64,000 nucleotides of DNA from Kofleriaceae bacterium (GCA_965223575.1 CBDCWZ010000010.1:1-64000); one strand, 5' to 3'. Counted from the stretch's first letter, positions 1,775 to 28,204 are shown. Notes: generated by a model not told the origin, from the sequence alone. A program made the numbers and translations.

Positions 1775-2454
1775 TACTTGTCTACCAGTCTACAAAGCGC
1801 GCATAGCCATACCAACGGACCAAAACGCATGATATCTGACCAGCTAGGTATAATTCGCAGGAAGTATTTTCCCACGAAAGTGTTGCAGTCCATCAGCCGA
1901 AATCGGGTAAGAGAAAATCCGGGCCAATTAGAAAACTATGTTCGGGCCCGTCACTTACTGTTATCAGGTGATCCGAACATCACGAGTATCGCCCAAGCTC
2001 AATGTGCAAAATGGTTAAAATGGATTCAATATTGCGATGGGAAAGGACTGATCAGCGAGGCAGCAGTCCCCCGGGGACGTTCTCAGCATCTGCCGACAGT
2101 CTGTCTACCTCGCTCTGAAGCAGTGAGCAGAAGTTTCAGTCTGGCGCGGTTAAAAGCCGTTCCCGCGCCCAGGTTGGACGCCGGTGTTGTACCGGTCATC
2201 CGAGCCCCGTCCCCATTCCTGCGTCACGACTCCCAGAAGCGGAGGGCGATGGGGTAATCGACGGGTCGCCGCCTGTGAAGCGAACGCTGGCGCTGACAAC
2301 GGGGGCGCGGACTGGGACGAGGACGGGAACAACACTGACCACACGTACTACGACCCCAATGTACTTTGAGTTCGTGCAGCGTGGCGGCGACGCGCATTGG
2401 GTCTGACTATTTGCCGCGCACCAACAGTATTTGCTGTCGTCAAGAACTATTCTT

Positions 2455-2463
2455 TGCTATAAT
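2455..2463 (+). promoter_or_regulatory. Candidate extended -10 promoter (TGcTATAAT)
   Basis: tgctataat at 2455-2463 with no good -35. It lies upstream of a 59-codon ORF (2487-2666) and the hairpin terminator at 2692. Confidence 0.25.
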
Positions 2464-2691
2464 CGTTTTCACGAACGAGACGAACAATGACTCGCATGTT
2501 TGACATAGCCGCGACACAACCAGCGCCGAGAAAACATCTCGAGCGGCAGGGTACGTGCGCGCGCTTTAGCGATTCCGGGTTATCAGCCAGGCCAGTAGAA
2601 AGTTCGCGTATTTATCTCGCCGGCAACCTGATCTGGAATCCAGAAAGTGGGGCGGCTATGTCATGAAGCTAGTCAAATAGCACCGAGACAC

Positions 2692-2724
2692 AGCCGTCCC
2701 AGGAAAACCTCGGACGGCTTTTTC
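2692..2724 (+). terminator. Rho-independent terminator-like hairpin
   Basis: Stem agccgtcc/ggacggct (8 bp, 12-nt loop) followed by ttttt; 9 nt upstream of the first tRNA. Confidence 0.45.
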
Positions 2725-2732
2725 GTGTTTCG

Positions 2733-2874
2733 GGGGGCACTCCACGGGTTGGTTGCCGCGGCTGTAAACCGCTTGCACGAGGGTTAACTAGGGTCCTTCG
2801 GACCCGTTGCCAGGGCCGAAAAATTCCATTGCATGGAATTTGTTCACCAACCTGGTCGAGTCCTTCTGCCCCCA
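2733..2874 (+). tRNA. tRNA-Tyr(GUA)-like, split in the T-loop by a 71-nt element (2786-2856)
   Basis: Acceptor gggggca/tgccccc. Anticodon loop ctGTAaa. T arm gaggg-TT[insert]CGAGT-ccttc. D arm poorly paired, short variable loop, no CCA. Confidence 0.55.
2786..2856 (+). repeat. T-loop element copy 1 (71 nt, subfamily B)
   Basis: Starts AACTAGG. P1 gggtcc/ggaccc, P2 ccagg/cctgg, P3 gaaaaattcca/tggaatttgttc. Flanks gagggTT|CGAGTcc. Confidence 0.85.
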
Positions 2875-2983
2875 CGACGGGAGACGTGCGCCCAGAAAAT
2901 GGCGCACACGAAAAACAATGACAGCGAAGCGAAAGGAAAAACGATGACGATGACAAAACGAAAACGGATGTGCGGACAACTTC

Positions 2984-3127
2984 TGCCTCCGTGACGCAAC
3001 GGTAGCGTAACCGACTTTTAATCGGAAAGTTGGGGGTTAACTAGGATGCTTCGCATCCGTTGACGCCACGGTATAAATCCAGCGAACTGGATTTATACCG
3101 TAAGGCGGACGATTCCCTCCGGGGCAC
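2984..3127 (+). tRNA. tRNA-Lys(UUU), split in the T-loop by a 71-nt element (3039-3109)
   Basis: D arm acgc/gcgt. Anticodon loop ctTTTaa. T arm ggggg-TT[insert]CGATT-ccctc. Acceptor halves (tgcctcc / cggggca) pair imperfectly. Confidence 0.55.
3039..3109 (+). repeat. T-loop element copy 2 (71 nt, subfamily A)
   Basis: AACTAGG start. P1 ggatgc/gcatcc, P2 cgcc/ggcg, P3 ggtataaatccag/ctggatttatacc. Flanks gggggTT|CGATTcc. Confidence 0.85.
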
Positions 3128-3128
3128 G

Positions 3129-3221
3129 ACCGCGTTGCTGAAGATTTTGCAGAGCGTAGTGGACGCAGTCCACGGAGCTGCAAAAGTTCAGGCGCGTTAA
3201 CGGTCCTGTAGGGACCCAGTT
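3129..3221 (-). repeat. T-loop element copy 3 (93 nt, long subfamily C, reverse)
   Basis: The reverse complement starts AACTGGGTCC and ends ...CAGCAACGCGGT. Flanks on the element strand are gaTT|CGtg. Lies between tRNA-Lys(UUU) and tRNA-Gln(CUG). Confidence 0.75.
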
Positions 3222-3227
3222 AATCAT

Positions 3228-3298
3228 TCGGAGATCGTCTAACGGTAGGACGACTGGCTCTGGACCAGTAAATCGGGGTTCGAATCCCTGTCTCCGAC
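3228..3298 (+). tRNA. tRNA-Gln(CUG)
   Basis: Acceptor tcggaga/tctccga. D arm gtct/ggac. Anticodon loop ctCTGga. T arm cgggg-ttcgaat-ccctg. The 3' end is abutted by reverse element copy 4. Confidence 0.8.
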
Positions 3299-3367
3299 CG
3301 CGTTGCTGAACAAATTCAACGAAGTGGAATTTTTCAGCCGCGATAACGGGTCCGAAGGACCCTAGTT
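3297..3367 (-). repeat. T-loop element copy 4 (71 nt, subfamily B, reverse)
   Basis: The reverse complement reads AACTAGGGTCCTTCGGACCCGTT...GCAACGCGGT. P2 cgcg/cgcg. Element-strand flanks ctggTT|CGgaga. Excising it restores tctccgaACCA. Confidence 0.85.
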
Positions 3368-3502
3368 AACCAGAACGAAACTGCGGTGTTCGCGACACGA
3401 GTGCCTTGAGTGGCCAGGGTGAACGACATCATCGGTGGATTCGCGATCTTTGACAACTGAATAGCGACGACGACAACGCGGGGCGTTTCCCGACGCCCCA
3501 TT

Positions 3503-3578
3503 TCCCACTTTGGCGTAGGTGGTCCGCGCGCCGGTCTGAAGAGCCGGAGGACCTGGTTCGATTCCAGGAGGGTGGGAC
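3503..3578 (+). tRNA. tRNA-Phe(GAA)-like, aberrant acceptor/T junction
   Basis: Anticodon arm ccggt-ctGAAga-gccgg. T arm cctgg-ttcgatt-ccagg. tcccact/ggtggga pair only if 2 extra nt follow the T stem. Confidence 0.45.
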
Positions 3579-3584
3579 TTTTGC

Positions 3585-3737
3585 GGGTTCGTGGTGAAAC
3601 AGGATCATACCGGGTTCTTACCCCGTGAGTGAACTGCGCGCGGCCGAAGGCCGTGCTCGTTACCGCGGTTGAAAAATTCCAGTTTGTACTGGAATTTGTT
3701 CAACAACGCGGTGAGCGTGCAAATCGTTCCGGACCCA
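3585..3737 (+). tRNA. tRNA-Lys(CUU), split between the variable loop and the T stem by an 81-nt element (3632-3712)
   Basis: Acceptor gggttcg/cggaccc. D arm gtga/tcat. Anticodon loop ttCTTac. T arm gagcg-tgcaaat-cgttc. Confidence 0.6.
3632..3712 (+). repeat. T-loop element copy 5 (81 nt, hybrid: GC-rich P1 plus B-type P3)
   Basis: AACTGCGCGC start. P1 gcgcggcc/ggccgtgc, P2 cgcg/cgcg, P3 gaaaaattccag/ctggaatttgttc. Atypical flanks gagTG|GAgcg. Confidence 0.75.
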
Positions 3738-3749
3738 CTACTCGCGTTT

Positions 3750-3893
3750 GCCCCTGGAAGCATCTGGGCGAGGCTAGCCGGCTGTCTACCGGCCGAGGAG
3801 GGTTAACTAGGATGCTCCGCATCCGTTGACGCCACTGTACAAATCCAGCGAACTGGATTTGTACAGTAAGGCGGACGATTCCCTTCAGGGGCG
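3750..3893 (+). tRNA. tRNA-Asp(GUC), split in the T-loop by a 71-nt element (3805-3875)
   Basis: Acceptor gcccctg/caggggc (perfect). Anticodon arm gccgg-ctGTCta-ccggc. T arm gaggg-TT[insert]CGATT-ccctt. Confidence 0.65.
3805..3875 (+). repeat. T-loop element copy 6 (71 nt, subfamily A)
   Basis: AACTAGG. P1 ggatgc/gcatcc, P2 cgcc/ggcg, P3 tgtacaaatccag/ctggatttgtaca. Flanks gagggTT|CGATTcc. Confidence 0.85.
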
Positions 3894-3933
3894 CTTTGGA
3901 AGCGCAAGCCAACTGGCGATGGCACCCGATTCG

Positions 3934-4027
3934 ACCGGGTTGCTAAACTTTTGCGAAGCAGAGCGGATGTTCGTCCGCGGAGCTGCAACAAGTTTAGACG
4001 CGGTGACGGGTCCGAAGGACCCTAGTC
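3934..4027 (-). repeat. T-loop element copy 7 (94 nt, subfamily C, reverse) in an anticodon loop
   Basis: The reverse complement starts GACTAGGGTCCTTCGGACCCGTCACCGCG and ends ...CAACCCGGT. Element-strand flanks cccgagTT|CGAAtcggg. Confidence 0.75.
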
Positions 4028-4042
4028 AACTCGGGGCAGGTT

Positions 4043-4117
4043 AACTGCGCGCGCCTTCGGCGTGCTCGTTAACGCCGCTGTACAACTCCAGTTGCTGGAT
4101 TTGTACAGCAAGGCGGA
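4043..4117 (+). repeat. T-loop element copy 8 (75 nt, hybrid: GC-rich P1 plus A-type P3)
   Basis: AACTGCGCGC. P1 gcgcgcc/ggcgtgc, P2 cgcc/ggcg, P3 ctgtacaactccag/ctggatttgtacag. Flanks gcaggTT|CAACTcc. Confidence 0.8.
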
Positions 4118-4140
4118 CAACTCCTGTCGCTTCCGCCGAT

Positions 4141-4223
4141 GGAAGGTAATCAGGCTGCGGAGCCTGGCCCGGCTGCTACCCGGTGCGCGCCAACAGCGTC
4201 TGGCTCGACTCCAGTGCCTTCCG
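4141..4223 (+). tRNA. tRNA-Ser(GCU), class II
   Basis: Acceptor ggaaggt/gccttcc. Anticodon loop ctGCTac. Long variable arm. G73. T-loop ctcgact. Confidence 0.7.
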
Positions 4224-4227
4224 CAAT

Positions 4228-4302
4228 GGCCCGGTCGTCTAATGGTCAGGACACGAGGCTTTCAATCTCGGAATCGGAGTTCGATTCTCCGTCGGGTCAC
4301 CA
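4228..4302 (+). tRNA. tRNA-Glu(UUC)
   Basis: Acceptor ggcccgg/tcgggtc. D arm gtct/ggac. Loop ctTTCaa. T arm cggag-ttcgatt-ctccg. Encoded CCA. Confidence 0.85.
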
Positions 4303-4303
4303 C

Positions 4304-4375
4304 GGGCTGATAGTGATAGTGGGAACACGCTGCTTTCGCACGGCAGAAAGCCGGGTTCGAATCCCGGTCGGTCCA
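4304..4375 (+). tRNA. tRNA-Ala(CGC)
   Basis: Acceptor gggctga/tcggtcc with G3:U70. Loop ttCGCac. T arm ccggg-ttcgaat-cccgg. Begins 1 nt after the preceding tRNA. Confidence 0.8.
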
Positions 4376-4391
4376 CTTTAGCTCCTTCAAT

Positions 4392-4467
4392 GGGCACGCA
4401 TGTACCAAGGGGGCGAGCTGGCCTTGCAAGCCGGCTGTGGTCGGTTCGATTCCGACCGTGTCCACCA
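4392..4467 (+). tRNA. tRNA-Ala(UGC), D arm poorly paired
   Basis: Acceptor gggcacg/cgtgtcc with G3:U70. Anticodon arm ctggc-ctTGCaa-gccgg. T arm gtcgg-ttcgatt-ccgac. CCA. Confidence 0.6.
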
Positions 4468-4474
4468 TCCAATA

Positions 4475-4620
4475 CCAGGTGTAAGTCAGCGGCAGACGGC
4501 ATCGTTTGGGACGATGCAGACGGAGGTTAACTAGGATGCTCCGCATCCGTTGACGCCACTGTACAAATCCAGCGAACTGGATTTGTACAGTAAGGCGGAC
4601 GATTCCTCCAGGGGGCACCA
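4475..4620 (+). tRNA. tRNA-Pro(UGG), split in the T-loop by a 71-nt element (4529-4599); acceptor halves non-complementary
   Basis: Anticodon arm catcg-ttTGGga-cgatg. T arm ggagg-TT[insert]CGATT-cctcc (perfect). 5' ccaggtg versus 3' agggggc do not pair. CCA present. Confidence 0.5.
4529..4599 (+). repeat. T-loop element copy 9 (71 nt, subfamily A)
   Basis: Nearly identical to copy 6. Flanks ggaggTT|CGATTcc. Confidence 0.85.
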
Positions 4621-4634
4621 CACGCATCGATCTT

Positions 4635-4708
4635 CCGCCGGTAGTTCAACGGGAGAACTGTCGCCTGATAAGCGGCCAATGGTGGTTCGATTCCACCCTG
4701 GCGGACCA
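4635..4708 (+). tRNA. tRNA-Ile(GAU)
   Basis: Acceptor ccgccgg/ctggcgg. D arm gttc/gaac. Loop ctGATaa. T arm ggtgg-ttcgatt-ccacc. CCA. Confidence 0.85.
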
Positions 4709-4709
4709 T

Positions 4710-4784
4710 GGTGATCGTAGCTCAAAGGTAGAGCACTCGGCTGTGACCCGAGCGGTGGGAGTTCGATTCTCCTCGATCACCCCA
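4710..4784 (+). tRNA. tRNA-His(GUG) with G-1
   Basis: G-1 opposite C73. Acceptor gtgatcg/cgatcac. D arm gctc/gagc. Loop ctGTGac. CCA. Confidence 0.85.
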
Positions 4785-4796
4785 ACTTCCTTTTCA

Positions 4797-4870
4797 GCGG
4801 GCTTGGCGTAACAGCAGCGTATCAGGCTTCCAACCTGAGGGTACGGGTGCAATTCCCGTAGCCCGCACCA
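4797..4870 (+). tRNA. tRNA-Gly(UCC)
   Basis: Acceptor gcgggct/agcccgc. Anticodon arm tcagg-ctTCCaa-cctga. T arm acggg-tgcaatt-cccgt (unusual T-loop). CCA. Confidence 0.75.
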
Positions 4871-4872
4871 AC

Positions 4873-4943
4873 GCCTTCGTAGCACAGGGGCAGTGCACTG
4901 GTTTCGTACTCCAGGGACGTGGGTTCGATTCCCGCCGAAGGCT
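4873..4943 (+). tRNA. tRNA-Thr(CGU)
   Basis: Acceptor gccttcg/cgaaggc. D arm gcac/gtgc. Loop ttCGTac. T arm gtggg-ttcgatt-cccgc. Confidence 0.75.
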
Positions 4944-4947
4944 CCGC

Positions 4948-5018
4948 TTCGGTGTCGTCCAACGGCAGGACAGCGGTCTTTGAAGCCGACGACCGGGGTT
5001 CGAATCCCTGCACCGGAA
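4948..5018 (+). tRNA. tRNA-Gln(UUG)
   Basis: Acceptor ttcggtg/caccgga. D arm gtcc/ggac. Loop ctTTGaa. T arm cgggg-ttcgaat-ccctg. Confidence 0.75.
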
Positions 5019-5022
5019 CTGC

Positions 5023-5096
5023 GCCTCTCGTAGCCATCTGGGAAGGCACCTGCCTTGTAAGCAGGCTAGGCGGTTCGATTCCGACGAGGGGCTCCA
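5023..5096 (+). tRNA. tRNA-Thr(UGU)
   Basis: Acceptor gcctctc/gaggggc. Anticodon arm cctgc-ctTGTaa-gcagg. T arm ggcgg-ttcgatt-ccgac (1 mismatch). CCA. Confidence 0.65.
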
Positions 5097-5101
5097 TCTA
5101 T

Positions 5102-5173
5102 TCCTCCGTGGCTTAACGGTAGAGCACCCGGCTGTTAACCGGGGATGTGCAGGTTCGACTCCTGCCGGGGAGC
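5102..5173 (+). tRNA. tRNA-Asn(GUU)
   Basis: D arm gctt/gagc. Anticodon arm cccgg-ctGTTaa-ccggg. T arm gcagg-ttcgact-cctgc. One C:A mismatch in the acceptor. Confidence 0.7.
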
Positions 5174-5176
5174 TAT

Positions 5177-5329
5177 GTCGCTATCGTCCAGTTGGCGAGG
5201 ACGCCGGTCTCTCAAGCCGGAAACGGCGGGTTAACTAGGATGCTTCGCATCCGTTGACGCCGCTGAACAAATCCAGCGAACTGGATTTGTTCAGCAAGGC
5301 GGGCAAGTCCCCCTCCCCTAGCGACGCCA
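5177..5329 (+). tRNA. tRNA-Glu(CUC), split in the T-loop by a 71-nt element (5233-5303)
   Basis: Acceptor gtcgcta/tagcgac (perfect). D arm gtcc/ggac. Loop ctCTCaa. TT[insert]CAAGT. The 3' T-stem side carries 5 extra nt. CCA. Confidence 0.6.
5233..5303 (+). repeat. T-loop element copy 10 (71 nt, subfamily A)
   Basis: AACTAGG. P1 ggatgc/gcatcc, P2 cgcc/ggcg, P3 ctgaacaaatccag/ctggatttgttcag. Flanks gcgggTT|CAAGTcc. Confidence 0.85.
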
Positions 5330-5340
5330 TGCGATCGTCG

Positions 5341-5416
5341 ACCGCGTTGCTGAACAAATTCAACGAAGTGGAATTTTTCAGCCGCGGTAACGAGCACGCC
5401 GAAGGCGCGCGCAGTT
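5341..5416 (-). repeat. T-loop element copy 11 (76 nt, hybrid, reverse)
   Basis: The reverse complement starts AACTGCGCGCGCCTTCGGCGTGCTCGTTACCGCGG and carries a B-type P3. Element-strand flanks ttgTT|CGacga. Confidence 0.8.
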
Positions 5417-5443
5417 AACAAGAGCTATTGAGGCCAAGGGGTT

Positions 5444-5514
5444 GACTAGGGTCCTTCGGACCCGTCACCGCGGCTGTAATCCTCCAGTAAACTGGATGAT
5501 TACAGCAACGCGGT
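5444..5514 (+). repeat. T-loop element copy 12 (71 nt, B-like variant)
   Basis: GACTAGG start. P1 gggtcc/ggaccc, P2 cgcg/cgcg, P3 ctgtaatcctccag/ctggatgattacag. Flanks aggggTT|CGATTcc. Confidence 0.8.
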
Positions 5515-5535
5515 CGATTCCCACCGTCGGCTCCA
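5515..5535 (+). tRNA. Orphan tRNA 3' fragment (half T-loop, T stem, acceptor, CCA)
   Basis: cgatt-cccac-cgtcggc-t-cca follows copy 12. Only about 25 nt lie upstream between copies 11 and 12, so the 5' two-thirds of the gene are missing. Confidence 0.4.
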
Positions 5536-5543
5536 ATCACTAT

Positions 5544-5615
5544 GCCTCCACCCAAGGATGGGACGCGGCGCTACGAACGCTGTCGATGAAGGTTCGAGTC
5601 CTTCTGGAGGTGCCA
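5544..5615 (+). tRNA. tRNA-Arg(ACG)-like with a compact D arm
   Basis: Acceptor gcctcca/tggaggt. ccca-agga-tggg hairpin directly after the acceptor. Anticodon arm cggcg-ctACGaa-cgctg. T arm gaagg-ttcgagt-ccttc. CCA. Confidence 0.55.
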
Positions 5616-5617
5616 AT

Positions 5618-5687
5618 ACCACCGCACGTGGACTCGTGGCCTGGGGTTCCGAACCTTGGTGAAGCAGTTCGATTCTGCTCGGTGGAC
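5618..5687 (+). tRNA. tRNA-Arg(CCG)-like with a compact D arm
   Basis: Acceptor accaccg/cggtgga (6 of 7 paired). cacg-tggact-cgtg hairpin. Loop ttCCGaa. T arm agcag-ttcgatt-ctgct. Confidence 0.5.
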
Positions 5688-5785
5688 CGGGTTGCTGTAG
5701 TTATGCAAAGCGGAGCGGACGGAAGGTCCGCGAAGTTGCAGAACTACAGGCGCGATAACGGGTCGAGCGTAGCGAAACCCTAGTT
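5686..5785 (-). repeat. T-loop element copy 13 (100 nt, subfamily C, reverse)
   Basis: The reverse complement starts AACTAGGGTTTCGC and ends ...CAGCAACCCGGT. Element-strand flanks aagTT|CCaccg. Abuts the tRNA-Arg(CCG)-like 3' end. Confidence 0.7.
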
Positions 5786-5793
5786 AACTTCAT

Positions 5794-5860
5794 GGGCGAC
5801 GATCTGGGATCAGCTTGGGCTCCAAATCCGAGCAGCGGGGTTCAATTCCTCGGTCGCCTG
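5794..5860 (+). tRNA. tRNA-Trp(CCA)-like with a compact D arm
   Basis: Acceptor gggcgac/gtcgcct. gatc-tgg-gatc hairpin. Anticodon arm ttggg-ctCCAaa-tccga. T arm cgggg-ttcaatt-cctcg. 67 nt. Confidence 0.5.
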
Positions 5861-5870
5861 CAACTCTTGC

Positions 5871-5943
5871 AGTCGCGTAGCCCAACGGAAGAGGCGGCAG
5901 GCTTAGAACCTGTGTGTTGGGGGTTCGAATCCTCCCGCGACTA
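5871..5943 (+). tRNA. tRNA with Leu anticodon UAG but a class-I (5-nt) variable loop
   Basis: Acceptor agtcgcg/cgcgact. Leu-type D arm gcc-caacggaaga-ggc. Anticodon arm gcagg-ctTAGaa-cctgt. T arm ggggg-ttcgaat-cctcc. A73. Confidence 0.6.
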
Positions 5944-5946
5944 CTG

Positions 5947-6091
5947 CGGTACGTAGCCCAATCGGCAGAGGCATCCAGTTTAAGCCCGGACCAGTGAGGG
6001 TTAACTAGGATGCTTCGCATCCGTTGACGCCACTGTACAAATCCAGCGAACTGGATTTGTACAGTAAGGCGGACGACTCCCTCCGTACCGA
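5947..6091 (+). tRNA. tRNA with Leu anticodon UAA, class-I variable loop, split in the T-loop (6003-6073)
   Basis: Acceptor cggtacg/cgtaccg (perfect). D arm gcc-caatcggcaga-ggc. Loop ttTAAgc (1 stem mismatch). T arm gaggg-TT[insert]CGACT-ccctc. A73. Confidence 0.55.
6003..6073 (+). repeat. T-loop element copy 14 (71 nt, subfamily A)
   Basis: Same P1, P2 and P3 as copy 6. Flanks gagggTT|CGACTcc. Confidence 0.85.
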
Positions 6092-6098
6092 CCTTCGA

Positions 6099-6243
6099 GC
6101 CAACGTAGCCCAACTGGCAGAGGCACCGGATTCAAATCGCGGACAGTATCGGTTAACTAGGATGCTCTGCATCCGTTAACGCCGCCGAACAAATCCAGCG
6201 AACTGGATTTGTTCAGCAAGGCGGACGACTCCGATCGTTGGCA
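6099..6243 (+). tRNA. tRNA with Leu anticodon CAA, class-I variable loop, split in the T-loop (6155-6225)
   Basis: Acceptor gccaacg/cgttggc (perfect). D arm gcc-caactggcaga-ggc. Loop ttCAAat (2 stem mismatches). T arm atcgg-TT[insert]CGACT-ccgat (perfect). A73. Confidence 0.5.
6155..6225 (+). repeat. T-loop element copy 15 (71 nt, subfamily A)
   Basis: AACTAGG. P1 ggatgc/gcatcc (loop tct), P2 cgcc/ggcg, P3 gaacaaatccag/ctggatttgttc. Flanks atcggTT|CGACTcc. Confidence 0.85.
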
Positions 6244-6249
6244 CAAAAC

Positions 6250-6408
6250 GCGGACGTGGTGGAACGGGATACACGCAACGTTGAGAGCGTTGTGAGCCAC
6301 GTGCTCAATGCCGGTTAACTCGGGGCCTTTGGACCCGTTCTCGGGGCTGAAAAATTCCACGATGTGGAATTTGTTCACCAACCCGGTCGAATCCGGCCGT
6401 CCGCACCA
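6250..6408 (+). tRNA. tRNA-Leu(GAG), class II, split in the T-loop by a 71-nt element (6317-6387)
   Basis: Acceptor gcggacg/cgtccgc (perfect). Anticodon arm caacg-ttGAGag-cgttg. 17-nt variable arm. T arm gccgg-TT[insert]CGAAT-ccggc (perfect). A73 and CCA. Confidence 0.75.
6317..6387 (+). repeat. T-loop element copy 16 (71 nt, subfamily B)
   Basis: AACTCGG start. P1 ggggcc/ggaccc, P2 cggg/cccg, P3 gaaaaattccac/gtggaatttgttc. Flanks gccggTT|CGAATcc. Confidence 0.85.
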
Positions 6409-6441
6409 TCCAGAAACATCAACCCTCAACGAAAGGCAGCC

Positions 6442-6972
6442 ATGACGGCTCAAACACTGTTGTTGTCCGCGGGCTATGAGCCGATCAAGGTCGTCTCTTG
6501 GCAACGCGCGATAACCTTACTCACGCTCGGCAAGATCGAAGTTCTGGAAGAGTATGATCGCGAAGTTCGATCCCCGACCATTGCGTTTAAGATGCCTGCG
6601 GTCGTTCGACTTTTGCAGGTACTCAAGCGCAACAAGAAGGCAGTCAAGTTCTCGCGCATCAACATCTATGCGCGGGATAAGTACCGGTGCCAATACTGCT
6701 GTCGAAAGCTACCCATCGCCGAGTTGACCTACGACCACGTCGTTCCGCGCGCGAAGGGTGGCAAGACGATTTGGCAGAACATCGTGACCGCATGCGAAAC
6801 GTGCAACAGCCGCAAGGGGAACCGGACGCCGGAGCAAGCGCACATGGCGTTGCTCAACCGGCCAACACGGCCGACTTGGGTCCCGGTCATGACGCTTCGG
6901 GTAAACCGCAACACGGCGCCCGATGCCTGGAGAGACTATCTCTACTGGACCGGTGAACTGCAAAGCGGCTGA
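6442..6972 (+). CDS. HNH endonuclease (McrA/COG1403-like, 176 aa) embedded in the tRNA array
   Basis: Motif YRCQYC...LTYDHVVPRAKGG....N.VTACETCNSRKGNR. ATG at 6442 with gaaagg 8 nt upstream. Starts 34 nt after the CCA of tRNA-Leu(GAG). Confidence 0.8.
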   Translation: MTAQTLLLSAGYEPIKVVSWQRAITLLTLGKIEVLEEYDREVRSPTIAFKMPAVVRLLQVLKRNKKAVKFSRINIYARDKYRCQYCCRKLPIAELTYDHVVPRAKGGKTIWQNIVTACETCNSRKGNRTPEQAHMALLNRPTRPTWVPVMTLRVNRNTAPDAWRDYLYWTGELQSG

Positions 6973-7029
6973 CCGCACACCGAATGCCACGGGCCACAGA
7001 TCGGATCCGCGAGCCCGCCGGCATTCACT

Positions 7030-7117
7030 GGAGAGACAAACCGATTGGCGACGGTGCTCGGCTTGAACCCGAGTGAGCGTAACTGCCTTAGGGGTTCGAC
7101 TCCCCTTCTCTCCGCCA
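7030..7117 (+). tRNA. tRNA-Ser(UGA), class II
   Basis: Acceptor ggagaga/tctctcc. Anticodon arm ctcgg-ctTGAac-ccgag. Long variable arm. T arm agggg-ttcgact-cccct. G73 and CCA. Confidence 0.85.
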
Positions 7118-7118
7118 T

Positions 7119-7203
7119 GGAAGGCATCCGAATGGTGAGGACCCCGGTTGGAAGCCGGGCGGGCGACAACGTTGCCTTGAGGGTTCGAGTCCCTCGCCTT
7201 CCG
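7119..7203 (+). tRNA. tRNA-Ser(GGA), class II
   Basis: Acceptor ggaaggc/gccttcc. Anticodon arm cccgg-ttGGAag-ccggg. Long variable arm. T arm gaggg-ttcgagt-ccctc. G73. Confidence 0.8.
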
Positions 7204-7207
7204 CTGC

Positions 7208-7276
7208 GCCTCGCGGGACGGATCCCAGCTGGGTCTTCTAAACCCGGCGCTCCAGGTTCAATTCCTGGGCGAGGTA
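7208..7276 (+). tRNA. tRNA-Arg(UCU)-like with a compact D arm
   Basis: Acceptor gcctcgc/gcgaggt. ggga-cgga-tccc hairpin directly after the acceptor. Anticodon arm tgggt-ctTCTaa-acccg. T arm ccagg-ttcaatt-cctgg. Confidence 0.55.
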
Positions 7277-7277
7277 C

Positions 7278-7345
7278 GGCTCCTCTGATGGACCAGTCCC
7301 GGCTCTTCTAAAGCTGGAGAGAGCGTTCGATTCGCTCAGGAGCCA
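7278..7345 (+). tRNA. tRNA-Arg(UCU)-like (second copy) with a compact D arm
   Basis: Acceptor ggctcct/aggagcc. ctg-atggac-cag hairpin. Anticodon arm cggct-ctTCTaa-agctg. T arm gagcg-ttcgatt-cgctc. Confidence 0.55.
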
Positions 7346-7538
7346 CTTCGCGCCCCGAACACGCGAAGACTCCTACAGCTTCGCGCGTATTTCGCCACCT
7401 CAACCGTACTGGTCATTGATCCGGGTGGATGTCCGCCCATCGCACGCCGAACTTCGCAAGGTACTTGCGAACACGATCTGAATCGTTGGCGCTCGAGACT
7501 TGGGCGAAATCGATACGTTTCGAAATACGGCGAAATAA

Positions 7539-7580
7539 GGGGTCAGACTGAAGTTATAACTTCAGTCTGACCCCACTTTT
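7539..7580. terminator. Perfect 16-bp hairpin, terminator-like, downstream of the tRNA array
   Basis: ggggtcagactgaagt-tataa-cttcagtctgacccc followed by actttt. Confidence 0.5.
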
Positions 7581-7659
7581 CCCGTCAACCAATTCTCACG
7601 GCTTACTCCAGATTGTTGCCAGCATACGGTTCTCCCGCTATCTCTACTATAATCAATCA

Positions 7660-8850
7660 ATGCTCTGCGTGTTTTGCAATTCTCTGTTGCCTTCGAAGAA
7701 GCCCGAACATGTAGTGAGCGCCTTCCTCGGTGGAAGACGAAGCTCAAGGAATCTGCTCTGTGATCTCCACAATGAAACGTTCGGCGGCTCATTTGAACGC
7801 CACGCGGCCAAAGGACTAGCCTCTCTGGCGAACATGCTTGGTGTCAGGAGCGGTCGCCGGCGAGCACCGCCACAAATTCAGGGCATTAAGGGACCAGACA
7901 AGTCTGAGACTTACACGCTCTTGCCAGGAGCAAAGATCATTCAACCCAAAGCGAAGGTCGAGATCGACGAGTCGGAGAACGGGCAGGTTCGAATACGCAT
8001 CAGAGCTGATGCAACCAAAGGCCATCAGATCCATAAGATTCTGGAGAGTTTCGCAGCCAAGTACGGAACCACGCTAGACGAAACGATTTTAGCCCAAGCC
8101 AACGTTACACAGATTCAACTCCCATCGCCCATTGAACTTGATATCACCCTAGGGCCGGACCTGCTGCGTTCACTCTCAAAAATCTCGTTACTACTTCTCG
8201 CTACCAAGACCGGTACAGTCGCGGTTCGAGGCTCCGCCTTTGAGGATGTTCGCAGGTTCATCGAGATCGGCGGACCAAGCAGTGAGTTCATTCGGATGAA
8301 TTCGGCAGCAAAGCTACCAACCATAGTAGGTCTGCACGAACCAGCAGTAGCCGTGCATCGTTTTTTGGTGTACGCAACTCGCGAATTCGGCTGTTTTGCG
8401 ACAATCGAACTGTATGGATGTTTTCTATTCACAGGCCTTCTTTCCAAGGAGTGGAACTCTGAAAATATTAGCGTTGGCCACTCGGTCAACCCCATCACCG
8501 AGCAACACTTCGTAGCTTATAATTTCAGTTCATCACCAATTTCGATTGACCAATTTGCTACTATCAAAGGCGATCAGGTAGCCACCAATGGCCGGCTGGA
8601 CAATCTGTTGAGCTTCGCAATAAGGCGTATGCAACAGCAAGCTCTTGAAGAAATGGTCGCACGATGTATTAATGAAAGCATTGGTAAGAGCGAGGATGTC
8701 ATTACTGAGGAAATGATCGCCAAATTGACCATGTCCTTTGCCGAGCAGTTCGTTGCTACGCAGAAGGGATACGTTCTAGAGCGACAACTCACCATTGACG
8801 ACGTTATTCCTCGAACTCCGACAGGAGAGCCCGACGGCCCTGATGAGTGA
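7660..8850 (+). CDS. HNH_5-type nuclease-domain protein with an uncharacterised C-terminal region (396 aa)
   Basis: N terminus CVFCNS...KPEHVVSAFLGG...LCDLHN matches the CxxC...EH..P..LGG...C..CN pattern of HNH_5 endonucleases. I do not recognise the rest. Confidence 0.55.
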   Translation: MLCVFCNSLLPSKKPEHVVSAFLGGRRSSRNLLCDLHNETFGGSFERHAAKGLASLANMLGVRSGRRRAPPQIQGIKGPDKSETYTLLPGAKIIQPKAKVEIDESENGQVRIRIRADATKGHQIHKILESFAAKYGTTLDETILAQANVTQIQLPSPIELDITLGPDLLRSLSKISLLLLATKTGTVAVRGSAFEDVRRFIEIGGPSSEFIRMNSAAKLPTIVGLHEPAVAVHRFLVYATREFGCFATIELYGCFLFTGLLSKEWNSENISVGHSVNPITEQHFVAYNFSSSPISIDQFATIKGDQVATNGRLDNLLSFAIRRMQQQALEEMVARCINESIGKSEDVITEEMIAKLTMSFAEQFVATQKGYVLERQLTIDDVIPRTPTGEPDGPDE

Positions 8851-9251: not shown

Positions 9252-9746
9252 CTACGCAGCGAAATCTTCTTCAACTACCCAGCCTTTTTTAGCTGAACGG
9301 AACCCAAGCCTGAGTGGTATTGCTTCTTCTTCGATTTCTTGCAGTCGATCGATAGGATATTGCTGAATTGGGTCAAAGGTGGTTGCTGCGAGTCGAAGAA
9401 GTCTATCTGCAGTCGAGTTCATTTTTTGCGATCCCGACTCCCATCGCGAAACCGTCTCACGCTCGACGCCAAAGTGTCGGGCGAAGTCAGTCCCAGACCA
9501 ACCGAGTGATTTTCTGAGGAATCGGATTTCCTCCGGTGTGAGACGAGCTGATTTGGTACTAATGGCATAGACGATGACCCGATGAAGTTCCTCGACTTTG
9601 GGAATCCCAACAAACGATTCACCGCACGCACCACAACGCTTTACATTCACACCAATCAAGGTGACGCGAACTCCTTGGGCGTCGTACAGGTGATTTTCTC
9701 TCGCTGACTTGAGTTGCCCACCACAATGTATGCACTTCATGTCCAT
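9252..9746 (-). CDS. MqsA-like antitoxin (YgiT zinc finger plus XRE HTH)
   Basis: CIHCGG...CGACGE zinc ribbon. LTPEEIRFLRKSLGWSGTDFARHFGVERETVSRWESG HTH. Confidence 0.7.
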   Translation of the reverse strand: MDMKCIHCGGQLKSARENHLYDAQGVRVTLIGVNVKRCGACGESFVGIPKVEELHRVIVYAISTKSARLTPEEIRFLRKSLGWSGTDFARHFGVERETVSRWESGSQKMNSTADRLLRLAATTFDPIQQYPIDRLQEIEEEAIPLRLGFRSAKKGWVVEEDFAA

Positions 9747-10748: not shown

Positions 10749-11273
10749 ATGGTTCGTAAAGTTCTCATTGGACTGGCAGGATTAGCTGGTGTACTTGCCA
10801 CAGTTGCCTGGTTTACAACTTCGTCTCCCAATCAAAACGAGCTGCGAATGATCAATATTAAGAACGCCAAAAATTATTTGGGAGTGTTAGTCGGCGGGCA
10901 GCCCAGCGATGAGGAGCTGAGGCATGCCGCAAAGTCCGGCTATCAGACGATTATTAACTTGCGTACGGCTTCTGAACCGGGGAGCGCTGAAGAAAAAGTA
11001 CTCGCGGAAAAGCTCGGCCTTGTTTACGTTTCGATCCCGACAGCAGGGGAGGCCGGATTGACTCGGGAAAATGCAACAGCTTTGCACGAGGCACTCAAGG
11101 CGGCATCAGGGCCAGTCATGCTTCATTGCGGTAGTGGAAACCGCGTCGGTGGTCTGATTGCTTTGCGCGCACACTATTTGTTAGGAATGCCCGCCAACAC
11201 TGCGCTAGAGGAAGGCAAGAAAGCGGGTCTCACAGGACTCGAACCCGCTGTGACACGCATCCTCGGCCTGTAA
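10749..11273 (+). CDS. DUF442/beta-lactamase-hydrolase-like protein phosphatase-fold protein, exported
   Basis: HCGSGNRVG (HCxxGxR) motif. N-terminal hydrophobic anchor. ATG at 10749 after aaagggggg. Confidence 0.6.
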   Translation: MVRKVLIGLAGLAGVLATVAWFTTSSPNQNELRMINIKNAKNYLGVLVGGQPSDEELRHAAKSGYQTIINLRTASEPGSAEEKVLAEKLGLVYVSIPTAGEAGLTRENATALHEALKAASGPVMLHCGSGNRVGGLIALRAHYLLGMPANTALEEGKKAGLTGLEPAVTRILGL

Positions 11274-11295
11274 CGGAACGACCAACTCAGGGGGG

Positions 11296-11363
11296 ATGGG
11301 GACGCGTTTCGGAAGTTCGGAACTTCGCAATTAGATTTCCGAACTTTCGAAACACGTCCCCAT
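11296..11363. repeat. 68-bp palindromic repeat, copy 3
   Basis: Same family. Followed by tandem cattgtt(t)tc units. Confidence 0.8.
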
Positions 11364-11489
11364 TGTTCCATTGTTTTCCCATTGTTTTCTTCGGGCTCGA
11401 TTAGGGGCGAACATCCTCACCGGAGCTGAAATGGAAAACGCCCGACCAGGAATGGAAACCTAACCGGCCGTCTTCAAACTGCTTTCGCG

Positions 11490-11567
<78 letters not shown>

Positions 11568-11739
11568 TGCGTTGTAAGTTACTGCAATACTTAAAGTTGT
11601 CAAGAGGCAATCCGGCATCGTTTCATTCATAAGTGCCTAGTCCCCGGTTTGGTCTCCGGTTTTTGGCAACAAACATCGGCACAATTTGGCGAATCCGATG
11701 CTACTGCTTTTCATCAAGCCCAACATTTGAATAGTGCTC

Positions 11740-11835
11740 TTGCATCTCGACGGTGACATGACCGGTCAACGCCCGCCGAACGACGGGGTCAATCTTCGCC
11801 CTTCGAATCATATCCGAAAACACGCACACGCTACG
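11740..11835 (-). pseudogene. Tyrosine-integrase C-terminal fragment
   Basis: About 80% nt identity to 20950-21040 inside the integrase ORF (..[15 protein letters not shown]..). Confidence 0.4.
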
Positions 11836-11929
11836 CTAAAGGTTCGCCAACAGCTACCAGTCAGGTGGTCGGATTCGCCCCAGGGCTTCGTCGGTTGCGA
11901 GTTCAAGTTCGGCTAACTCGGTTACGGCA

Positions 11930-12008
11930 CCACGACTGGTCGTCTGCCCGTTTGCTCAAGTGGACGATGGGCTCCTAGGTCCGCCCACCAGATTTCACCG
12001 CACTTCAT
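11930..12008 (-). pseudogene. MazF/PemK-like toxin, N-terminal fragment only
   Basis: MKCGEIWWADLGAHRPLEQTGRRPVVV, then homology to the full copy at 32299-32562 ends. Confidence 0.6.
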
Positions 12009-12053
12009 CTAGCATCTTCTTCATCTAGCATCTTCTTCATCTAGCATCTTCTT
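12006..12053. repeat. 16-bp tandem repeat x3 (catctagcatcttctt)
   Basis: Three perfect units. The paralogous locus at 32.56 kb has one unit. The unit spans the antitoxin stop and toxin start junction. Confidence 0.85.
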
Positions 12054-12267
12054 CAGCCAGCATCTCGCACCACTCATCTATTCCTTGATCGGCAAGGGCA
12101 AGATCTTCTTCCTCGCCGGTATTAGCGAGCCTATTTAGGTCCCACCGCGCGGGGTCGGGATGACGGAGCACAATCACAGAGACATGCTCGCCTTGGCGAA
12201 GATCTAGACGTTGGCTGGGTTTGAGCACACCGTCACTGTATTCAGCTTCGATCGGCTTCACATTCAA
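12037..12267 (-). CDS. DUF104/AF2212-type antitoxin (76 aa)
   Basis: MNVKPIEAEYSDGVLKP...L..GE.V.V pattern. Paralogue at about 32.56-32.79 kb. Confidence 0.55.
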   Translation of the reverse strand: MNVKPIEAEYSDGVLKPSQRLDLRQGEHVSVIVLRHPDPARWDLNRLANTGEEEDLALADQGIDEWCEMLAEEDAR

Positions 12268-12341
12268 TAGATTAGCACGTTCGGCAACTATGGGCTATCG
12301 CCGTGATTTTAGCCCTAGAAAAAGCAACAAAAGCGAGAATT

Positions 12342-12471
12342 TCAAACAGATCGAGCGGTGTCTTCCCAAGAGGTTCCTTCGTCGGGATCCCGTTCGTACT
12401 CTGCTAGCCGTTCGTCCAATACTTCGCGGTGCGACCGGCTCGTAGAGCTTATCGATCTCGGTGGGACTCAT
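12342..12471 (-). pseudogene. Addiction-module-component-like small gene, frameshifted
   Basis: C-terminal HREVLDERLAEYERDPDEGTSWED is in a different frame from the N-terminal MSPTEIDKLYEPV. Confidence 0.35.
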
Positions 12472-12676
12472 CGCATGTCTCCGCGCAAGTTCGTTGCTCT
12501 CCTGCGCAAAGTTGTGACCTTTGAGCGTTGTCGCCGATCCTCGACGTGCTGGTTTAAACCCCACGAGTCACCGCATATGCACTATCACTTGGCCAGCCGC
12601 TCAACAGCTGCCCCCGAGGCCGCGGTTACTCCGAGTGCAGAAGGCCAGACACTCGGAAAGAATTGTCCTGCGCAGC

Positions 12677-24973: not shown

Positions 24974-25734
24974 GCGTGTCCGACATTCTCACCTTTACGA
25001 AACTCTTGATTGCGATTGTTTTTCCGCGAAGAAGTTTCGCCAAATCCTCTGCTTTGATCTCGATCGTGTTCCTGATCTTGTTTGGGAATCGGAAATGTCC
25101 CAGACTCAAGTCGCTTCGCCAAAATGCAATATCCCTGCTGATCAAAAAACAAAATCTTGAGCAGATGACGCCGACGATTGGCAAATACGTATAGATGGCC
25201 GGTTTCTGGATCTGCGTCCAGCGCTTCACGAACAACCTTCGCAAGACCATCAAACTGTTTCCTCATGTCAACAGGATTCACTGCCACAAAAACGCGGACC
25301 TTCGTCGGTAGCGTTAACATGAGCCATCCAGAGAGTTTGCCCACTCGCAGACATTCTCGCCGATCCGACTTGGAACAAAACAATAAACGCCTGCCGTTTT
25401 TGAGAACGAGCTCGTAGCGGGGTTCTCCGCTCAAAGCAATCTCGTCACGAACCTTTACTTCAACAAATTCTGTCTGGCCAGATTGTTTTTCACGCCTCTG
25501 CCAACTCCATAACGCAGACGCCGAGATCCCATGATGTTTGCCAAATTCTACCGCAGACCGATTGCTCTTCTGCCATGCGCGGAGAATCTTTCGCTGCTCT
25601 GCACGACTTCTTTGAATCCGTTTTTGCATTCCATGCGGTTTAACTCGACAGGCTGCTGCGCGAAACATGGGGCTCACGGGGCGCATACGCCGAGAACGTC
25701 TCTGGGGGGACTGCTCGTTCTGGGATCCATTCAC
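24970..25734 (-). CDS. IS66 TnpA (HTH) and TnpB (Orf2) read as one frame
   Basis: AVEFGKHHGISASALWSW (TnpA), then LPTKVRVFVAVNPVDMRKQFDGLAKVV...LYVFANRRRHLLKILFFD (TnpB). Confidence 0.7.
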   Translation of the reverse strand: MNGSQNEQSPQRRSRRMRPVSPMFRAAACRVKPHGMQKRIQRSRAEQRKILRAWQKSNRSAVEFGKHHGISASALWSWQRREKQSGQTEFVEVKVRDEIALSGEPRYELVLKNGRRLLFCSKSDRRECLRVGKLSGWLMLTLPTKVRVFVAVNPVDMRKQFDGLAKVVREALDADPETGHLYVFANRRRHLLKILFFDQQGYCILAKRLESGTFPIPKQDQEHDRDQSRGFGETSSRKNNRNQEFRKGENVGHA

Positions 25735-28024: not shown

Positions 28025-28154
28025 CGCCTGATGCCCAGGCGCTCGCTCGTTTTCCGATCCGATATCGGAAATACGCTCGGTCGCCCGGACTTTGGCCAGT
28101 GATCATGCAGCTCTACATACTTTTCCGTGCGGAGGTTCATTTGGATCTTGCCTT

Positions 28155-28194: not shown

Positions 28195-28204
28195 ATAAGA
28201 AACC

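Follow-up and report, generated by a model that had tools for sequence, protein, structure and literature searches.

What is a dense array of tRNA genes doing in a genome when gene finders see only half of its genes, and what has happened to the other half? The question is raised by a 64,000-nucleotide (nt) stretch of DNA from a Kofleriaceae bacterium (GCA_965223575.1, CBDCWZ010000010.1:1-64000; the window), which carries such an array at 2733-7346. Comparison with related loci makes it probable that two things are superimposed here, an accessory mobile array of the 'L-array' kind and a site-specific mobile DNA element living as a parasite or commensal of its redundant tRNA genes. L-arrays are described in PMC8421152 as long, horizontally transferred, supernumerary tRNA operons, such as the trn operon of plasmid delta of Anabaena/Nostoc PCC 7120. 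The array of the window is probably a horizontally mobile accessory tRNA operon of this kind, has an embedded conserved gene for an HNH endonuclease and, by homology with the cyanobacterial operon, most likely supplies reserve tRNAs that would come into use during an attack on translation or on the tRNA pool. The element can best be understood as a mobile DNA insertion and not as an ancient intron, and the tRNA genes that it interrupts are most likely non-functional.

The array and the element inserted into it

The array consists of 31 tRNA units, all on the plus strand, which flank the single embedded HNH gene and carry about 29 different anticodons; it is non-periodic, the inserted element being its sole tandem-like repeat. 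ARAGORN at its default threshold recognizes 16 tRNAs within the array (3228-7277) and 22 once the element has been excised in silico. The Rfam model RF00005 reaches at least its gathering score in 13 places in the array, one of which (2985-3038) is only the 5' part of Lys-UUU, and two class II Ser genes are matched only by the Rfam tRNA-Sec model at a permissive threshold. The 31 units thereby fall into 16 canonical genes, six interrupted genes that are restored to the ARAGORN default by cutting out a 71-nt T-loop insert (Tyr-GUA, Lys-UUU, Asp-GUC, Leu-UAA, Leu-CAA and Leu-GAG), five that are found at a relaxed ARAGORN threshold only (Lys-CUU after excision, Ser-GCU, Arg-ACG, Trp-CCA and the second Arg-UCU) and four that the tools do not recognize (Ser-CGA, a 'Pro-UGG' chimera, Glu-CUC and Arg-CCG). 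The gene finders see only half of the array because the element splits many T-loops. No intron or ribozyme family, group I included, was matched by Rfam up to E = 10 in 2000-8500, and a scan for promoters and terminators across the array gave none above the shuffled background.

An earlier note, made from the sequence of the window alone, had described about 31 tRNA or tRNA-like genes on one strand at 2733-7345. Location, strand and the number of units stand, while only 16 of the units are canonical, and the 'tRNA-like' ones do not form a class of their own: each is an ordinary tRNA gene that an insertion has split or recombination has damaged. The order of anticodons given there is essentially correct when set against the tool calls, and a 3' CCA is indeed encoded by only part of the genes (e.g., Glu-UUC and Ala-UGC). 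The note's failure to find Met, Val or Cys genes is matched by ARAGORN, which finds none in the array before or after in-silico excision. Spacers measure 1-15 nt, and those of 1-4 nt reported in the note are represented by spacers of 1-3 nt at 4302/4304, 4708/4711 (given there as 4708/4710) and 4870/4873. What was overlooked is the element itself, whose 16 copies cover 1,229 of the 4,613 array bases (27%).

As delimited by repeat finding and pattern searches, the element is non-coding, 71-100 nt long and built of two hairpins, and it is present in 11 forward and 5 reverse copies that split ten tRNA units and clip an eleventh (Gln-CUG). The first hairpin, of 6-9 bp, frequently has a loop of the UUCG type. 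In the longer second one, 4-5 pairs at the base are followed by a bulge of two A and then by about 15 further pairs. The arms differ among copies in a compensated manner, and the folding energy of 23 unique copies is equal for the sense and the antisense strand and so gives no signal for either strand of RNA. All significant matches of a covariance model built from the copies lie, within the 64-kb window, in 2783-6390, and a pattern describing the insert in a T-loop matched 10 forward copies in the window versus none in 100 shuffles.

The insertion sites were mapped against a near-identical array on another contig (L017, with an HNH protein 96% identical to that of the window), which served as the reference for junctions and divergence. 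Comparison of filled and empty orthologous sites gives exact junctions without target duplication, at GGGTT^CGATTCC (when filled, GGGTT[AAC...GGCGGA]CGATTCC), GCCGGTT^CGAATCC, GCAGTT^CGATTC and GAGTT^GAGCG. The insertion point lies directly 3' of GTT and in most cases separates T55 from C56 in the T-loop, the preferred site being GGTT^CGAATCC. Reverse copies follow the same GTT rule on the opposite strand, where T-loop mimics are used, the anticodon loops of Ser-CGA (complement, GAGTT^CGAATC) and Ser-UGA among them. At the 3' end of Gln-CUG the target is TGGTT^CGGAG, and two reverse copies abut this tRNA-Gln exactly, one at each end. Excision in silico at the mapped junctions yields tRNAs at the default threshold from six genes in the window and ten in L017, including in the latter a Leu-CAA gene that bears a reverse copy 3' of the anticodon loop plus a forward copy in the T-loop.

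Occupancy of the GTT^CGA sites is 10 of 29 inside the array and 0 of 36 elsewhere in the window (p = 1e-4). The sole other tRNA of the window, a free-standing tRNA-Gly(CCC) at 11490-11564 on the minus strand, offers a perfect target, GGGTTCGAATCC, and is uninvaded; this and the array-limited occupancy fit either selection against hits in needed tRNAs or a targeting that is restricted to the array. A test for hairpin loops at the target was passed by 18 of 19 sites, yet also by 74% of control GTT sites, and only few insertion sites (L027, L030) have clear strong hairpin loops. Guide pairing of the target GTT with an internal GAC/AAC is found in some subfamilies of the element only. A 'TT crossover' of the integron or serine-recombinase type was rejected: it fits a subfamily in non-tRNA DNA (…CATG-TT) and fails for the copies in tRNA genes, whose right junction reads GG(T/A/G)|CGA.

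The features of the locus are listed below; L048, like L017, is a related array, and 'excised' refers to removal of the element in silico.

2450-7491 (+): conserved mobile module (upstream region, array, HNH gene, distal tRNAs), from blastn homology to L017; flanks differ
2733-2875 (+): tRNA-Tyr(GUA), T-loop interrupted; ARAGORN default only when excised
2786-2856 (+): element copy, 71 nt; covariance model, 84.5 bits
2984-3127 (+): tRNA-Lys(UUU), T-loop interrupted; ARAGORN when excised, Rfam sees 2985-3038 only
3039-3109 (+): element copy, 71 nt, site-specific variant common to L017
3129-3221 (-): element copy, 93 nt, between Lys-UUU and Gln-CUG; 0/93 differences from L017
3228-3299 (+): tRNA-Gln(CUG), canonical, encoded 3' A-CCA displaced by the next element; ARAGORN, Rfam
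3297-3367 (-): element copy, 71 nt, in the 3' acceptor end of Gln-CUG; TGGTT^CGGAG on the opposite strand
3504-3578 (+): tRNA-Phe(GAA), canonical; ARAGORN, Rfam
3585-3738 (+): tRNA-Lys(CUU), interrupted where the variable region meets the T stem; empty site GAGTT^GAGCG in L017, relaxed ARAGORN when excised
3632-3712 (+): element copy, 81 nt, window-specific
3750-3894 (+): tRNA-Asp(GUC), T-loop interrupted; ARAGORN when excised
3805-3875 (+): element copy, 71 nt
3898-4135 (+): tRNA-Ser(CGA) pseudogene with two inserts, 16-nt variable arm lost; compared with the intact L017 gene, 6370-6456
3934-4027 (-): element copy, 94 nt, inside the Ser-CGA anticodon; GAGTT^CGAATC on the opposite strand
4043-4117 (+): element copy, 75 nt, in the Ser-CGA T-loop
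4141-4224 (+): tRNA-Ser(GCU), weak or non-canonical; relaxed ARAGORN, tRNA-Sec model 30.8 bits
4228-4302 (+): tRNA-Glu(UUC), canonical, CCA encoded; ARAGORN, Rfam
4304-4376 (+): tRNA-Ala(CGC), canonical, the L017 orthologue with two inserts; ARAGORN, Rfam
4394-4467 (+): tRNA-Ala(UGC), canonical, CCA encoded; ARAGORN
4475-4620 (+): chimeric pseudogene, Pro-UGG 5' part, element, Val-UAC 3' part; comparison with L017
4529-4599 (+): element copy, 71 nt, the recombination joint
4635-4708 (+): tRNA-Ile(GAU), canonical; ARAGORN, Rfam
4711-4784 (+): tRNA-His(GUG), canonical; ARAGORN, Rfam
4797-4870 (+): tRNA-Gly(UCC), canonical; ARAGORN, Rfam
4873-4945 (+): tRNA-Thr(CGU), canonical, interrupted in L017; ARAGORN, Rfam
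4948-5019 (+): tRNA-Gln(UUG), canonical; ARAGORN, Rfam
5023-5096 (+): tRNA-Thr(UGU), canonical; ARAGORN, Rfam
5102-5173 (+): tRNA-Asn(GUU), canonical; ARAGORN, Rfam
5177-5329 (+): tRNA-Glu(CUC), interrupted and degenerate, 5 extra nt (TCCCC) 3' of the T stem; ARAGORN negative even when excised
5233-5303 (+): element copy, 71 nt
5341-5416 (-): element copy, 76 nt, first half of a reverse-27 nt-forward composite
5444-5514 (+): element copy, 71 nt, second half of the composite
5515-5535 (+): orphan tRNA 3' fragment, CGATTCCCACCGTCGGCTCCA, read from the sequence; no matching 5' half found
5543-5614 (+): tRNA-Arg(ACG), weak; relaxed ARAGORN only
5618-5685 (+): tRNA-like unit Arg(CCG), recognized by no tool; L017 orthologue interrupted
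5686-5785 (-): element copy, 100 nt; 0/100 differences from L017
5792-5858 (+): tRNA-Trp(CCA), weak; relaxed ARAGORN, tRNA-Sec model 25.9 bits
5871-5944 (+): tRNA-Leu(UAG), canonical score, 74 nt, without long variable arm; ARAGORN, Rfam
5947-6093 (+): tRNA-Leu(UAA), T-loop interrupted; ARAGORN when excised
6003-6073 (+): element copy, 71 nt
6099-6244 (+): tRNA-Leu(CAA), T-loop interrupted, the L017 gene with an additional reverse copy; ARAGORN when excised
6155-6225 (+): element copy, 71 nt
6250-6408 (+): tRNA-Leu(GAG), T-loop interrupted, insertion window-specific; empty site GCCGGTT^CGAATCC in L017
6317-6387 (+): element copy, 71 nt
6442-6972 (+): HNH endonuclease gene, 176 aa; Pfam HNH_5 and HNH
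7030-7117 (+): tRNA-Ser(UGA), class II; ARAGORN, tRNA-Sec model 43.3 bits
7119-7204 (+): tRNA-Ser(GGA), class II, fused to Ser-UGA via two element copies in L017 and L048
7203-7277 (+): tRNA-Arg(UCU); ARAGORN
7278-7346 (+): second tRNA-Arg(UCU), weak; relaxed ARAGORN only

The composite consists of two inverted copies round a core of about 27 nt, AACAAGAGCTATTGAGGCCAAGGGGTT, and occurs in the window (5341-5514), in L048 (about 6155-6351) and in L017 (10625-10823), at differing places and, in L048, in the opposite orientation, as if the pair had moved or been inverted as a unit. The 3' side of the anticodon arm of Leu-CAA reads ATCGCGG in the window (6099-6154) versus GTCCCG plus a reverse copy in L017 (9648-9781), a difference that may be the footprint of an imprecise excision. 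A long variable arm is normal for bacterial tRNA-Leu; the array's Leu tRNAs UAG, UAA and CAA (5871-6244) measure 74-76 nt and are devoid of it, the Leu tRNAs of the Anabaena array are likewise short (75-78 nt; L042 4326-4862), and the array's tRNA-Tyr has 72 nt.

Related arrays, mobility of the module and recombination between copies

Homologous arrays linked to an HNH gene were found at L002, L017, L018, L019, L021 and L043-L048. The HNH protein of the window has more than 1,900 close homologues, its gene is present in all 12 related arrays, and many large phages, Myxococcus phage Mx1 among them, encode homologues. With the HNH protein encoded directly upstream of 24 tRNAs on plasmid pCC7120delta of Nostoc/Anabaena, the protein of the window shares 40.6% identity over 79% (tblastn). 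The earlier note had counted two HNH-type nucleases, of which that at 6442-6972 has proper Pfam matches (HNH_5, HNH), while the other, at 7660-8850, gives only a sub-threshold HNH_5 match and lies outside the module.

The arrays differ in the presence and the position of the element. L017 contains 21 copies, partly at other tRNAs than in the window; no copy occurs in L018 (22 tRNAs, HNH 86% identical) nor in six other arrays, and L043-L047, with up to 35 tRNAs, have none. The Tyr site is filled in the window, L017 and L048 and empty in L018, L043 and L046, and the insertions in Lys-CUU and Leu-GAG are restricted to the window, the L017 sites being empty. A scan for the insert pattern, over-fitted to the subfamilies of the window, in one genome per species returned 16 loci; 15 of them are single chance matches in coding DNA, and the real one, L002, is a 1.3-Mb contig of an uncultured 'delta proteobacterium' with 13 tRNAs, an orthologous HNH gene and two T-loop inserts. 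When the element was compared by blastn with plasmid and phage collections, only its tRNA-Leu part was matched. A search with the first hairpin retrieved L019, a viral contig on which 26 tRNAs and an HNH gene (52% identical product) are accompanied by Ro60 and a phage portal gene, and which holds another subfamily in three copies, of which two occupy T-loops and the third an Arg anticodon loop. The same search matched 22 metagenome contigs, among them L021, a small HNH-linked array with a T-loop insert of the subfamily seen in L019, both arrays being distant ones; most of the others bear a related subfamily in non-tRNA DNA, always inserted after G|TT, ending in ...CATGTT and in some cases arranged as head-to-tail tandems.

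Copies of the element are also the places at which the arrays have been rearranged. L017 has separate Pro-UGG (6987-7132) and Val-UAC (7882-8026) genes with one element copy each, and the approximately 800 nt between them, with Pro-GGG, Gly-GCC, Met, Ile-UAU and Pro-CGG, are absent from the window. As the alignment indicates, the Pro-UGG/Val-UAC chimera of the window is the product of a recent deletion by recombination between two element copies. The absence of Met and Val is due to this deletion and is not a designed trait of the array. In L017 and L048, Ser-UGA and Ser-GGA have become fused at element copies; L048 is nearly devoid of the tRNAs that once lay between Tyr and the HNH gene, and the 16-nt variable arm missing from Ser-CGA in the window is retained in L017.

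Homology between the window and L017 ends, by blastn, at 2450 and 7491, beyond which the flanks differ, and the same module lies between different flanks in the window, L017, L018 and L048, which supports the note's view of the array as accessory and mobile. Next to the array lies a large serine recombinase in L017 and L018, and RtcR/RtcB, Ro60 or EF-Tu adjoin related arrays or sit inside them. RtcR, a 721-aa protein without a Pfam match and RtcB are encoded directly downstream of the L017 array (11051-16655), the 721-aa protein being a candidate RNA-repair partner; an RtcB fragment is found in L048, and genes embedded in other arrays encode EF-Tu (L043, 5579-6760) and Ro60/TROVE (L045, 1202-2794; L019, 4507-6075). 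The host appears, from protein similarity, to belong to the Myxococcota (Nannocystales/Polyangia-like): the HflX protein of the window has one 100% identical match, the next ones being at most 64% identical, and the named relatives are Enhygromyxa, Nannocystaceae and Polyangiaceae.

Nature of the element and fate of the interrupted genes

The element is best regarded as mobile because its sites are filled in some arrays and empty in others, both orientations and intergenic positions occur, relatives exist in non-tRNA DNA and in tandems, and deletions and fusions have taken place at its copies. It would be mobilized in trans by an enzyme encoded elsewhere and would insert 3' of GTT, preferably in a T-loop, without duplicating the target; recombination between copies would then delete or fuse neighboring tRNA genes. 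The HNH protein of the array is a further candidate for the mobilizing enzyme. The single isoacceptors Tyr-GUA and Asp-GUC are interrupted, and therefore the array is not the sole tRNA set of the cell, unless the inserts leave the RNA; the element seems able to persist only among redundant tRNA genes. That the array is instead the housekeeping set of the genome is scarcely credible: most amino acids are covered and only one other tRNA (Gly-CCC) is found in the window, but Tyr, Asp, both Lys and three Leu genes are interrupted, Met, Val and Cys are absent, many units score poorly, close relatives such as L048 have lost most of the array, and the module is found in differing contexts.

Several observations weigh against a parasitic or commensal element in dispensable genes. 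Neither the window, by Pfam on about 29 of its larger open reading frames (ORFs), nor any fetched locus yielded a transposase for the element, and tblastn with an IS200 probe gave no Y1 (HUH) transposase in the window or in 49 loci. The proposed function of the array is carried over by homology from one studied cyanobacterial operon. Furthermore, the inserts and the genes around them are highly conserved. Between the window and L017, shared element copies differ at 5 of 910 positions (reverse copies, 0/340), compared with 15/428 in core spacers, 62/939 in all spacers and 21/177 at third codon positions of the HNH gene, and the exons of interrupted genes (6/734) are as conserved as intact tRNAs (16/1064). 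Between L017 and L048, with 61 differences at 177 HNH third positions, two element copies show 1 difference in 171 nt versus 9/139 in the flanking tRNA parts and 13/49 in spacer. In the comparison of the window with L048, the figures are 1/72 for the Tyr gene, 1/71 for its insert and 27/262 for the upstream non-coding region; Tyr with its insert is near-invariant (1/72) across three arrays whose HNH third positions are about 35% different. These figures fit purifying selection, or very recent spread or homogenization, and not decaying pseudogenes. The conservation may reflect recent spread, the correction of copies from an active lineage that is itself conserved, or a role of the hairpins at the level of the host. 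Conservation alone is no proof of splicing, because reverse and intergenic copies are conserved equally well.

Alternatively, the array could chiefly be a phage-derived counter-defense and not a stress reserve of the cell: it would make up for host tRNAs that anticodon nucleases or defense systems aimed at tRNAs have destroyed. L019, where a phage portal gene adjoins a related HNH-linked array bearing inserts of this kind, the HNH homologues in many large phages and the TmtA-like genes (12677-19992) and MqsA-like antitoxin near the array speak for such an origin, whereas the arrays of the window, L017, L018 and L043-L047 lie in cellular contexts without phage structural genes. This origin, which we regard as rather unlikely, is compatible with a mobile array and element and does not exclude them. 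The buffering of codon usage, which the note names as well for comparable arrays, is likewise no more than a conceivable function here.

Concerning the element itself, a parasite or commensal ranks above domesticated hairpins, and these above mobile introns rejoined by RtcB. Domestication would mean that the array uses the hairpins, which can fold stably as RNA or DNA in either orientation, for processing, for transcript stabilization, for attenuation or to bind proteins, as has been suggested for REP sequences. It would accommodate a conservation that is independent of orientation and position and at least equal to that of the tRNAs, the compensated differences in hairpin arms and the two reverse copies that exactly abut both ends of tRNA-Gln. 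It is nevertheless unlikely, given that the element is absent from most homologous arrays, that near-identical arrays differ in the positions of the copies, that the majority of copies lie within tRNA genes and not between them, and that related elements occur in unrelated non-tRNA DNA.

The inserts could also be mobile tRNA introns, which would enter at the DNA level and be excised at the RNA level, the halves being rejoined, for instance by RtcB, to give functional tRNAs. This would explain the conservation of exons and inserts alike. Excision at the mapped junctions gives canonical tRNAs; the T-loop insertions in tRNA genes (10 in the window and more in L017, L002, L019 and L021) are all in one orientation; exons of interrupted genes are conserved like intact tRNAs; and the Tyr insertion has been retained in three diverged arrays. 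RtcR/RtcB lie beside the L017 array, with an RtcB fragment in L048 and an RtcB gene in the window (33543-34691), and the Anabaena array and rtcB are co-regulated, as stated in PMC8421152. However, reverse copies, which would be antisense in the RNA, are equally conserved (0/340 and 0/95), between genes or in anticodons. The bulge-helix-bulge motif is absent from the predicted folds of three interrupted precursors, in which a 6-bp helix encloses the 5' junction, the 3' junction being in an open region, and Rfam detected no ribozyme or intron family in 2000-8500. Moreover, arrays without any copy exist, interrupted genes additionally bear lethal deletions and fusions, the free-standing tRNA with a perfect target is uninvaded, and RtcB accompanies element-free arrays as well (PMC8421152). 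Introns of this sort are accordingly improbable, about as much so as domesticated hairpins, and the stricter proposal, that the inserts represent a novel, mobile class of bacterial tRNA intron at T-loop position 55/56, with the array-linked RtcB rejoining the halves and the invaded genes remaining functional, is slightly more doubtful still.

Known systems, wider meaning and neighboring genes

Santamaria-Gomez et al. (2021; PMC8421152) assign to L-arrays a conserved HNH homing endonuclease (all8564) and RNA-repair and translation neighbors including rtcB, and report that the Anabaena trn operon is induced under translational stress. The array of the window resembles L-arrays in its tens of same-strand tRNA genes with spacers of few bases, its coverage of most amino acids, its pseudogenes and the presence of RtcB, Ro60 and EF-Tu near its relatives, and it shares with the Anabaena array the linked HNH gene (40.6% identity) and unusually short Leu tRNAs. 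It differs from the Anabaena operon in its myxobacterium-like host and in an HNH gene that is embedded in the array and not upstream of it. A third of its genes are split by an element, whereas for the L-arrays in the available text of PMC8421152 only unspecified insertions, duplications and deletions are mentioned. The comparison drawn in the earlier note with known arrays is upheld, since the locus belongs to the class of HNH-linked long tRNA arrays treated in that text and has counterparts in Myxococcota metagenome-assembled genomes and on the contig with a phage portal gene. With phage tRNA clusters that carry homing endonucleases (T4 SegB, cited in PMC8421152) the array shares an endonuclease gene beside the tRNA genes; the endonuclease is thought to promote the spread of such clusters, and a relative of the window's array adjoins a phage portal gene. 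Unlike T4 SegB, the enzyme here is of the HNH and not the GIY-YIG type, and most of its relatives are in cellular contexts.

The element has parallels in several families, none of which it matches in full. Like the IS200/IS605 insertion sequences (IS608, PMC3201880) and their miniature derivatives, which transpose as single strands by 'peel and paste', it inserts 3' of a short fixed sequence with exact junctions and in a fixed orientation and has hairpins near both ends in place of terminal inverted repeats; unlike IS608, its target is GTT and not a tetra- or pentanucleotide such as TTAC, and its hairpins begin 2-8 nt from the ends, versus 19 and 10 nt (PMC3201880). It resembles the IS91 family (PMC13181058) in the lack of target duplication, the subterminal palindromes and a GTTC-containing target, and departs from it in a junction inside GTT^C and not after the tetranucleotide, in being about 75 nt long and geneless, and in that no HUH Y2 enzyme was seen. 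With a classical miniature inverted-repeat transposable element, a deletion derivative of a DDE transposon, it has in common that it is small, non-coding, multi-copy and present or absent at orthologous sites. Membership in that class was excluded by the lack of target duplication, by ends that are not inverted repeats of each other and by the two internal hairpins.

REP/REPIN sequences are palindromic repeats that are maintained by RAYT transposases and usually have a GTAG signature; no REP is known to target tRNA T-loops. The element is similarly a small, palindromic, non-coding repeat with some inverted pairs, intergenic hairpin relatives and a conservation beyond that of neutral DNA, but it has ACTAGG instead of GTAG, and no RAYT was found. 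Archaeal tRNA introns are defined by a bulge-helix-bulge motif and cut by EndA; Sugahara in 2008 and Fujishima in 2010 are said to have described such introns at non-canonical positions and to have proposed their transposition among tRNA genes. Similarities to these are the short insertions in many tRNAs, including the T arm, and the occurrence of related sequences across different tRNAs, while the bacterial host, the lack of the motif in predictions and the reverse and non-tRNA copies set the element apart. Literature searches brought up no earlier account of repeats that target the T-loop, nor of tRNA arrays in myxobacteria.

The locus extends the known class of HNH-linked L-arrays to the Myxococcota and one of their phages. 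New is a miniature mobile element that prefers the T-loop, the most conserved sequence of tRNA genes. Such an element is a natural marker of the tRNA genes that a cell can afford to lose, and the deletions and fusions that it mediates show how arrays decay and are reshuffled. The conservation of the inserts and the constant company of RtcB leave room for RNA-level excision from transposon-interrupted bacterial tRNAs, although such removal of the inserts is unlikely.

Outside the module, a perfect 16-bp hairpin, GGGGTCAGACTGAAGTTATAACTTCAGTCTGACCCC, at 7539-7574 lies just beyond the conserved end and may be a bidirectional terminator or the end of an element. An MqsA-type antitoxin with a helix-turn-helix domain (Pfam E = 2e-10) is encoded at 9252-9746 on the minus strand. 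Farther on (12677-19992, minus strand), two ORFs of 1,523 and 1,009 aa, with transglutaminase-core and sacsin-type domains, are matched by PADLOC to TmtA (Tiamat), down to E = 1e-48 for the second ORF, which suggests a defense island adjoining the array. Two transposase loci are unrelated to the hairpin element, namely a truncated DDE_Tnp_1 fragment upstream of the array (931-1284, minus) and an IS66-family transposase with a TnpB-like Orf2 (23378-25734, minus). The gene for an RtcB-family RNA ligase mentioned above (33543-34691, minus; Pfam E = 1e-81) is 26 kb away from the array, and that at 45504-46130 (minus) encodes a DTW-domain protein (Pfam E = 1e-38), of a family that includes tRNA-uridine aminocarboxypropyltransferases. 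A Macro-domain/ADP-ribosylglycohydrolase protein (27000-28894) adjoins an NrtR-type Nudix regulator, and this pair suggests ADP-ribose metabolism or signaling.

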